A stretch of 64,000 nt of DNA from Escherichia coli. Lineage in GTDB: Bacteria; Pseudomonadota; Gammaproteobacteria; Enterobacterales; Enterobacteriaceae. The position numbers and the translations under genes are program-made. The stretch is taken from NCBI RefSeq assembly GCF_003334385.1, contig NZ_QOWN01000009.1. The stretch is one strand, 5' to 3'. Position 1 is the first letter of the stretch. Each line of letters starts with the position of its first letter. The notes below the pieces were generated by a model. That model worked only from the letters and a program-made list of their open reading frames with translations. It made no database searches and was not told the DNA's origin. Positions 60,581 through 62,909 of this stretch are shown here, piece after piece.

Positions 60581-61339
60581 ATGAAACAAACACAACGTCA
60601 CAACGGTATTATCGAACTGGTTAAACAGCAGGGTTATGTCAGTACCGAAGAGCTGGTAGAGCATTTCTCCGTCAGCCCGCAGACTATTCGCCGCGACCTC
60701 AATGAGCTGGCGGAGCAAAACCTGATCCTGCGCCATCATGGCGGTGCGGCGCTGCCTTCCAGTTCGGTTAACACGCCGTGGCACGATCGCAAGGCCACCC
60801 AGACCGAAGAAAAAGAGCGCATCGCCCGCAAAGTGGCGGAGCAAATCCCCAATGGCTCGACGCTGTTTATCGATATCGGCACCACGCCGGAAGCGGTAGC
60901 GCACGCACTGCTCAATCACAGCAATTTGCGCATTGTCACCAACAATCTCAACGTTGCTAACACGTTGATGGTAAAAGAAGATTTTCGCATCATTCTCGCC
61001 GGTGGCGAATTACGCAGCCGCGATGGCGGGATCATTGGCGAAGCGACGCTCGATTTTATCTCCCAGTTCCGCCTTGATTTCGGCATTCTGGGGATAAGCG
61101 GCATCGATAGCGACGGCTCGCTGCTGGAGTTCGATTACCACGAAGTTCGCACCAAACGCGCCATTATTGAGAACTCGCGCCACGTTATGCTGGTTGTCGA
61201 TCACTCGAAATTTGGCCGTAACGCGATGGTCAATATGGGCAGCATCAGCATGGTAGATGCCGTCTACACCGACGCCCCGCCGCCAGTAAGCGTGATGCAG
61301 GTGCTGACGGACCACCATATTCAACTGGAGCTGTGCTGA
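60581..61339 (+). CDS. glpR: DeoR-family glycerol-3-phosphate regulon repressor GlpR (intact)
   Basis: 252 aa ORF MKQTQRHNGIIELVKQQGYVSTEELVEHFSVSPQTIRRDLNEL... with N-terminal HTH. Confidence 0.95.
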   Translation: MKQTQRHNGIIELVKQQGYVSTEELVEHFSVSPQTIRRDLNELAEQNLILRHHGGAALPSSSVNTPWHDRKATQTEEKERIARKVAEQIPNGSTLFIDIGTTPEAVAHALLNHSNLRIVTNNLNVANTLMVKEDFRIILAGGELRSRDGGIIGEATLDFISQFRLDFGILGISGIDSDGSLLEFDYHEVRTKRAIIENSRHVMLVVDHSKFGRNAMVNMGSISMVDAVYTDAPPPVSVMQVLTDHHIQLELC

Positions 61340-62909
61340 TCCTGCACGGCTTCCCACGTCAGACCAAAACGCGCCAGGTATTTGCGTAGCCGATCCGCGT
61401 CATTGACGCTGGCTTTGCCCTGGCGCGAAACGTCAAAAAGCTGGCGTCCGGCTGCGGAAAGCGACTTTGCCTGGCGGCAGATAGCGATAACGTGTTCCAG
61501 TTGCATACGGTCGAAGAGATCGATGTTTTCTGCCTCTGCGCCCAGCAACGCCGTAAGCGCGGAGGGGCGGCTCTCCTGCCAGTTATAGCGCAGACGGTTT
61601 ATCTCATCTTCAACCACGTCCAGAGTGATGCGTCCGCTAGTGGCAAAGGTGGCCATCCGCGTGACGCTGGCAGAAAGTTCGCGAAAGTTACCGCGCCATG
61701 TTGCCTGGGGAGAGGTCGCAAAAGCCAACCAGGCGCGCCGCGCTTCGGTGTTAAAACGCACGCTGTCGCCAGTGAGTGAGGCGTGGCGCTCCACTTCATA
61801 ATCCAGGTTCGGTTCAATATCTTCCTGGCGCTGGCGTAGACCCGGCAGGGTGAAGGTCCAGAGATTGATCCGCGCGTACAGATCTTCGCGAAATTTGCCT
61901 TCGGCAACCAGCTGGCGCAAATCGCGCACCTAAGCTGAAAATCACTGCTCACCTGGCGATCGCTGCCAAACGGGTAAAAGGTTTTCTCTTCAATGGCTTT
62001 CAGCAGCATTGCCTGTTCGTCTGCGCCCAGTTCGCCAATCTCATCAAGAAACAACATTCCGCCGTTGGCGCTGCGTAATAAACCTTCACGAGATTCCCGC
62101 GCCCCGGTAAACGCGCCTTTTACATGACCAAACAGCGTCGACATGGCGGTATCGCCGCGCAGGGTGGCGCAGTTCACTTCCACAAACGCGCCGCTAAACT
62201 GATGCCGCGCCTGTTTTAACTCGAAGATGCGTCGCGCCAGAAATGACTTGCCCGCGCCGGTTGGACCGTTAAGCAGAATCGGCGCGCGGGATTTGATCGC
62301 CACTTTTTCGATCTGCTCAATCATGCGGTTGAAGTGGGGGTTACGCGTGGCAATGCCGGACTTAAGAAAATCAAGCGTTTGCTGGCGTTCCTCGGCAAAG
62401 CGGCTGGCGATGGCGTTATAACGGCTTAAATCGAGATCGATAATCGTTACTTCACCTGGGCCGCGCGGCTGTTCTTTTTTGCGCGGAGGTGAAGATTGTA
62501 TCAGCCGGGCGGGCAGGTAACGCGCTTCTGCCAGCAGAAACCAGCAAATCTGCGCGACGTGGGTACCGGTGGTGATGTGAATTAAATAGTCTTCTTTTTC
62601 TGGCTGAAACTCGTAACCACGGGCGAAATCATGCAGGCAGGCGTAGACCTCTTCGAAATCCCACGGGTTATGCAGTTCAATCTCAACGCTCACCACTTCT
62701 GTTTCTGGCGAAACGCTGGCGATATCGCGTTTAAGCGTTTCAAATAGCGAGCGCGAGCGGGCGTCGTGCAACAATTCCAGTCGATCGATGACCAACGATT
62801 CTTGCTGGCATAAACAGAGTGTCGGACGCCATTTTGACCAGCGCTGACTGCCGCGCCCGGCATAATCCAGTACGGTACCGACAAAGCCAAAAGCCACTGT
62901 TTTACGCAT
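61321..62909 (-). pseudogene. rtcR: Sigma-54-dependent activator RtcR (CARF N-domain + AAA+ + HTH), apparently frameshifted in this sequence
   Basis: Two overlapping minus-strand ORFs (61599..62909 and 61321..61929) carry the N-terminal/AAA+ part ([20 protein letters not shown]) and the C-terminal part in different frames; junction near 61925..61935 with a TAG immediately 5' of the second frame. Confidence 0.7.

Follow-up and report, generated by a model that had tools for sequence, protein, structure and literature searches.

Does the rtcR locus on the minus strand of this 64,000-nt stretch of DNA (hereafter, the window) encode a working activator, carry a real inactivating mutation, or merely look broken through an error of sequencing or assembly? 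An earlier note, made from the sequence alone, had described RtcR as a protein of about 532 aa encoded by a gene of about 1599 nt, had measured the locus at 1589 nt, and had proposed that its reading frame is broken near 61925-61935 by a deletion of roughly 10 bp or by a sequencing error. The lengths and the broken frame were confirmed: the locus (61321..62909, 1589 nt, compared to 1599 nt and 532 aa for the intact allele) is covered in the ORF listing of 60500-64000 by two overlapping minus-strand ORFs, of 436 and 202 aa, that lie in different frames. Alignment with a reference, the 1599-nt rtcR of NZ_CP025903.1 (WP_001232946.1, 532 aa), revealed 0 substitutions and a single gap of exactly 10 nt, and the same deletion is the only difference from the intact rtcR of NZ_CP047277.1. 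The frame is thus truly broken by this gap, which disposes of the reservation that a continuous frame had been mis-read. The missing bases, TCGCCGGAAC, correspond to rtcR nt 980-989 and overlap codons I327, A328, G329 and T330. Placement of the gap is unambiguous because its ends share no microhomology, and the junction falls inside the interval first estimated. The gap is a difference read directly from the sequence and does not rest on statistics.

61321..62909, minus strand: rtcR pseudogene, 1589 nt, identical to intact alleles minus one 10-nt deletion
61930..61931, minus strand: deletion junction, A979 (61931) joined to G990 (61930)

A single indel whose length is not a multiple of three, found against otherwise identical orthologues and reproduced in five SRA assemblies, is what characterizes a frameshift pseudogene. 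As judged from its sequence, the locus is the rtcR gene by descent, but none of the polypeptides that it is predicted to encode qualifies as RtcR. It is very probably an ordinary, recent and lineage-specific rtcR pseudogene affecting a regulator that is well characterized, that is to say an event of an already-known kind and not a new feature, and it should be annotated as one rtcR pseudogene rather than as two genes.

Two mechanisms were considered for the loss of the 10 nt. Slippage between direct repeats was rejected since no direct repeats bracketing these bases were found around the deletion site. Deletion mediated by a hairpin was also rejected, the local single-strand DNA fold being no better than that of shuffled sequences (z = -0.39). 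The sequence therefore offers no explanation for the origin of the deletion.

The coding capacity of the locus is distributed as follows.

61599..62909, minus strand: 436-aa ORF, native through ...SSDFQL (residue 326), then out of frame
61932..62909, minus strand: native N-terminal coding part (residues 1-326), with the CARF-like RtcR domain and the first part of the AAA+ core
61599..61931, minus strand: out-of-frame tail of 110 residues (RCAICASW...LKMR) and stop codon
61321..61929, minus strand: stranded C-terminal frame, 202 codons with a GTG start, equal to native V331-S532

Pfam analysis of intact RtcR identified the CARF-like RtcR domain (PF06956, residues 2-185), Sigma54_activat (PF00158, 187-354) and AAA_lid_14 (362-443). 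Residues 2-185 are unchanged in the window, and PF06956 is also listed for the exact 436-aa product. Residue 327, where the frame is lost, lies inside PF00158 and ahead of AAA_lid_14, so that the break does fall within the AAA+ domain, as had been supposed. The 436-aa product keeps the Walker A (GPTGAGKS, 215-222), GAFTGA (265-270) and Walker B (LFLDE, 286-290) motifs, whose positions were read off the sequence. Alignment of RtcR to the Aquifex NtrC1 structures 1NY5, 1NY6 and 4LY6 (E = 2e-43) pairs the deleted IAGT with LAAT, on the strand carrying sensor I, and places both FREDLYAR and GNFREL downstream of the break. From established knowledge of NtrC1 and PspF, we take the FREDLYxR motif to represent the arginine fingers and GNxREL to be sensor II. 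The C-terminal frame holds the FREDLYAR R-finger motif, the lid (362-443), the GNFREL sensor II and the C-terminal DNA-binding region. No single polypeptide contains the complete AAA+ module (spanning approximately residues 187-443), IAGT being deleted and FREDLYAR and GNFREL being out of frame. Furthermore, the DNA-binding C-terminus is no longer attached to the AAA+ domain, residues 331-532 lying in the other frame and being preceded by a TAG; the predicted removal of the DNA-binding part was therefore correct.

Scores against the RtcR equivalog profile (NCBIfam NF038308, curated cut-off of 650 bits) reflect this split. The intact reference reaches 852.4 bits, compared to 535.9 bits for the 436-aa product (profile positions 1-324) and 282.1 bits for the 202-aa ORF (profile positions 328-529), both below the cut-off. 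Unlike intact RtcR, the window gene thus has a frame broken at codon 327, two ORFs that each fail to reach the family cut-off, and sensor I, R-finger motif, lid, sensor II and DNA-binding region detached from the N-terminal part.

Both halves are nevertheless open, and a GTG at 61929 is the first in-frame codon of the C-terminal half, so one may ask whether rtcR could still be functional, either because ribosomes change frame at the junction or because RtcR is made in two pieces, the second starting at this internal GTG. The local sequence argues against both routes: in the downstream frame, a TAG arises at the junction directly ahead of the GTG, no slippery heptamer is present at the junction, and no Shine-Dalgarno sequence lies upstream of the GTG (preceding bases gattttcagcttagGTG, gattttcagcttag). 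Moreover, the upstream frame runs on for 110 codons past the junction with no termination near the GTG, and termination-reinitiation coupling is therefore not available for the 202-aa ORF. The protein itself is no more favorable, since a core beta-strand (sensor I) has lost four residues, the N-terminal piece bears 110 junk residues, and the AAA+ fold is cut within its alpha/beta core and not at a domain boundary, making complementation by two pieces implausible. All orthologues examined are single 532-aa proteins encoded in a single frame, and the junction occurs in no complete genome. Programmed frameshifting or a split gene was consequently rejected, and the idea that this rtcR remains functional in any form is hardly credible.

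The other alternative is that the 10-nt gap is an artefact of sequencing or assembly and that the true genome has an intact rtcR. When the rtcR locus was compared by megablast with 5,426 complete E. coli genomes, rtcR matches were obtained everywhere, and the best of them all showed 99.4% identity and spanned 1599 bases. An 86-nt probe covering the junction gave no full-length match above 90% identity among the 5,426 complete RefSeq E. coli genomes: the 4,849 records covering at least 80% of the probe are all in the 80-90% identity band, which corresponds to a gapped alignment, and nine records with a higher identity cover only part of it. The deletion allele is therefore absent from all these complete genomes, as would be expected of an artefact; in addition, public metagenome scaffolds err at the same spot, with 100-N gaps and 55-nt duplications. 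However, an exact look-up in approximately 15 billion predicted proteins found the identical 436-aa product on five contigs from Logan assemblies of public SRA runs, one of which may have supplied the reads for the window. Two of these five contigs, from SRR3823653 (L004) and SRR1815429 (L005), were read at the sequence level; both are 100% identical to window positions 58599-64000 and contain the junction of GATTTTCAGCTTA with GGTGCGCG. The same junction and product have thus been assembled independently from at least five SRA runs, with flanks that are 100% identical in the two that were read. A clean loss of 10 nt in a sequence that is neither repetitive nor homopolymeric would also be an atypical platform error.

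Comparison with the nearest complete genome over the whole window, that of strain N18-04097 (NZ_CP047277.1), which carries an intact rtcR, points in the same direction. Over 64,000 bases, the two differ by 29 substitutions and exactly one indel, the rtcR deletion, and only rtcR is broken among the 56 CDSs that were checked, the other 55 mapped from N18-04097 being intact in the window. A single indel in 64 kb together with 55 intact CDSs excludes an indel-prone assembly. Between the two causes initially put forward, the deletion is therefore preferred, on the strength of the five SRA assemblies and of a 64-kb comparison that shows no second indel, which leaves a sequencing error unlikely; taken as a whole, the probability that the gap is an artefact of any kind is very small. 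Most of the substitutions (16 of the 29) are clustered in rhsB, within approximately 630 bp (window 1578-2211), and the rest of the window is nearly identical to N18-04097. This cluster would fit with recombination or with a variable Rhs element.

The 202-aa ORF was also tried as a marker of the allele in other assemblies and was rejected. It returned 10 contigs (L006-L015), seven of which (L006-L012) carry intact rtcR alleles split by 100-N scaffold gaps. Among the three others, L013 carries an uninterrupted rtcR that ends at the contig end, L014 a large deletion allele (954 nt, described below) and L015 a nonsense allele. The diagnostic product of the 10-nt deletion allele is therefore the 436-aa protein only. 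The seven split contigs are ENA METAG-scaffold records from different studies, and all are interrupted at the same position within an intact rtcR. Their rtcR halves are rejoined by 100 Ns (for example, L007 9884-9983), leading to artefactual calls of a 202-aa C-terminal ORF. The two halves overlap by 55 nt, corresponding to nt 974-1028 in L006-L009 and L012 and to nt 979-1033 in L011; in L010, which lacks more of the upstream sequence, the downstream boundary (nt 979) is the one point in common. These breaks may result from branching of the assembly graph where co-occurring rtcR alleles diverge.

The remainder of the rtc locus has its usual layout, rtcR being divergent from rtcB-rtcA with a sigma54 -24/-12 promoter between them.

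63044..63059, plus strand: sigma54 -24/-12 element of rtcBA (TGGCAC-N5-TTGCA), TGGCACGACGGTTGCA, unique match, intact
63098..64000, plus strand: 5' part of rtcB (RNA ligase), cut by the window end

The promoter region shows no difference from that of N18-04097, and no stop codon interrupts the 300 codons of rtcB translated before the window end (63098-63997). The SRR3823653 contig, which shares the 10-nt deletion, has full-length rtcB (408 aa) and rtcA (338 aa) genes, whose proteins are identical to those of N18-04097. The lack of secondary mutations in rtcR and the intact state of rtcB, rtcA and their promoter indicate that the lesion is recent.

RtcR belongs to the sigma54 enhancer-binding proteins and acts at an upstream activating sequence to switch on rtcBA, the RNA-repair operon (PMC9650030, PMC5175333), and its CARF domain is the module that binds RtcAB (PMC9650030). 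In this phylogroup-A-like E. coli, the frame changes at codons 327-330, within the AAA+ sigma54-interaction domain, as a result of the 10-bp deletion. The sole product predicted to have a normal start and ribosome-binding context would consist of the CARF domain and a partial AAA+ core followed by 110 nonsense residues, and would lack sensor I, the R-finger motif, the lid with sensor II and the DNA-binding C-terminus. Such a product should be unable to bind the rtcBA upstream activating sequence and to form the ATP-hydrolysing hexamer that remodels sigma54-RNA polymerase. As it would have neither DNA binding nor a hexamer, RtcR-dependent induction of rtcBA in response to tRNA or ribosome damage and to ribosome-targeting antibiotics should be lost, leaving a basal, RtcR-independent expression. 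Part of the induction is indeed independent of RtcR, as shown in Salmonella (PMC9650030, PMC5175333).

The closest laboratory equivalent is the delta-rtcR mutant of K-12 built from the Keio in-frame deletion, which was grown in culture and has a higher sensitivity to the tRNase VapC, with some RtcB expression remaining (PMC5175333). The same phenotype is expected here, namely an rtcBA operon not inducible by RtcR, residual RtcB and an increased sensitivity to VapC. However, the gene is deleted in frame in the Keio allele, whereas the natural allele still encodes the CARF domain and a partial AAA+ fragment. Domain architecture and the published biology of RtcR together support the suggestion of the earlier note that this RtcR is non-functional, and we consider with high confidence that the locus carries a genuine, recent and lineage-specific allele with a presumed loss of function. 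Users of this lineage for work on RNA repair, on tRNases of toxin-antitoxin systems or on tolerance to antibiotics targeting the ribosome should expect rtcBA not to be inducible via RtcR. The practical value of an rtcR pseudogene is otherwise limited.

Other natural lesions of rtcR or of the whole rtc locus have the same outcome, loss of the RtcR activator, and several of them affect the same region (codons 325-350), but they differ in the molecular event. One of them concerns approximately 586 of 5,425 complete genomes (~11%), in which only nt 1216-1599 of rtcR are left, abutting a 3' remnant of rtcA, both being annotated as pseudogenes. In these genomes, rtcB is missing, as are most of rtcR and the 5' part of rtcA (for example, L020, NZ_CP028483.1, 2098-2884); in contrast, the window lineage keeps rtcB and rtcA intact. 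Nine complete genomes carry an in-frame rtcR deletion of 954 nt that joins nt 32 to nt 987 and that PGAP annotates as a pseudogene.

L019 (NZ_CP027103.1) 2501-3145 and L014 2204-2400: 954-nt deletion allele, encoding protein P0003 of 214 aa

This protein was found on 77 contigs. The 954-nt deletion is flanked by an imperfect direct repeat of 11 nt (GTCGGTACCGT and GCCGGAACGGT, 8/11 matches), and its right breakpoint falls within the 10 nt missing from the window rtcR. O157:H7 was rejected as a carrier of a large deletion: its rtcR is intact (1599 nt) and the partial match reflects alignment extension. An insertion of the IS1A family interrupts rtcR in one genome, that of strain HCP5S3_I4 (NZ_CM149869.1, 359999-362374). 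The 90% protein cluster of the 436-aa product includes many other frameshift alleles, mostly singletons, that correspond to deletions of 1, 4 and 16 nt within codons 326-350, as deduced from the protein sequences. L015 (Logan SRR23175684, 4220-4222) carries an independent CAG-to-TAG nonsense mutation at Q325, two codons upstream of the window deletion. Natural E. coli can thus do without the Rtc system and have lost it repeatedly, down to remnants in about 11% of complete genomes. Such losses are worth bearing in mind when Rtc is claimed to be a general determinant of antibiotic tolerance.

This recurrence, by remnants, the 954-nt deletion, IS1, frameshifts and nonsense mutations, could suggest that the loss in the window is real but adaptive, inactivation of RtcR having been selected (for example, for motility or translation-stress phenotypes) and not being due to neutral decay; rtc mutants do show an increased motility (PMC5175333). 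However, a dispensable gene under weak selection would be expected to be lost just as repeatedly, the 10-nt deletion allele is rare, and no secondary decay or parallel change points to selection, so that adaptive loss appears improbable. Two more speculative proposals are, taken together, very doubtful. One is that the fragment made of CARF and partial AAA+ persists as a stable decoy for RtcA/RtcB or for damaged-tRNA ligands, a proposal based on the role of CARF in RtcAB binding (PMC9650030). The other is a deletion hotspot at nt ~980-990, where the 10-nt deletion and two 1-nt deletions lie and where the 954-nt deletion has its right breakpoint.

Outside the deletion, the window rtcR is identical in nucleotides to the gene of intact E. 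coli RtcR (WP_001232946.1, NF038308), and its neighborhood is also unchanged, with rtcBA diverging from it under a sigma54 promoter and glpR converging on it. The latter gene (60581..61339, plus strand, 252 aa) is intact and is not affected by the deletion. The 3' ends of rtcR and glpR overlap convergently by 19 nt (61321-61339), as they do in the reference genomes.
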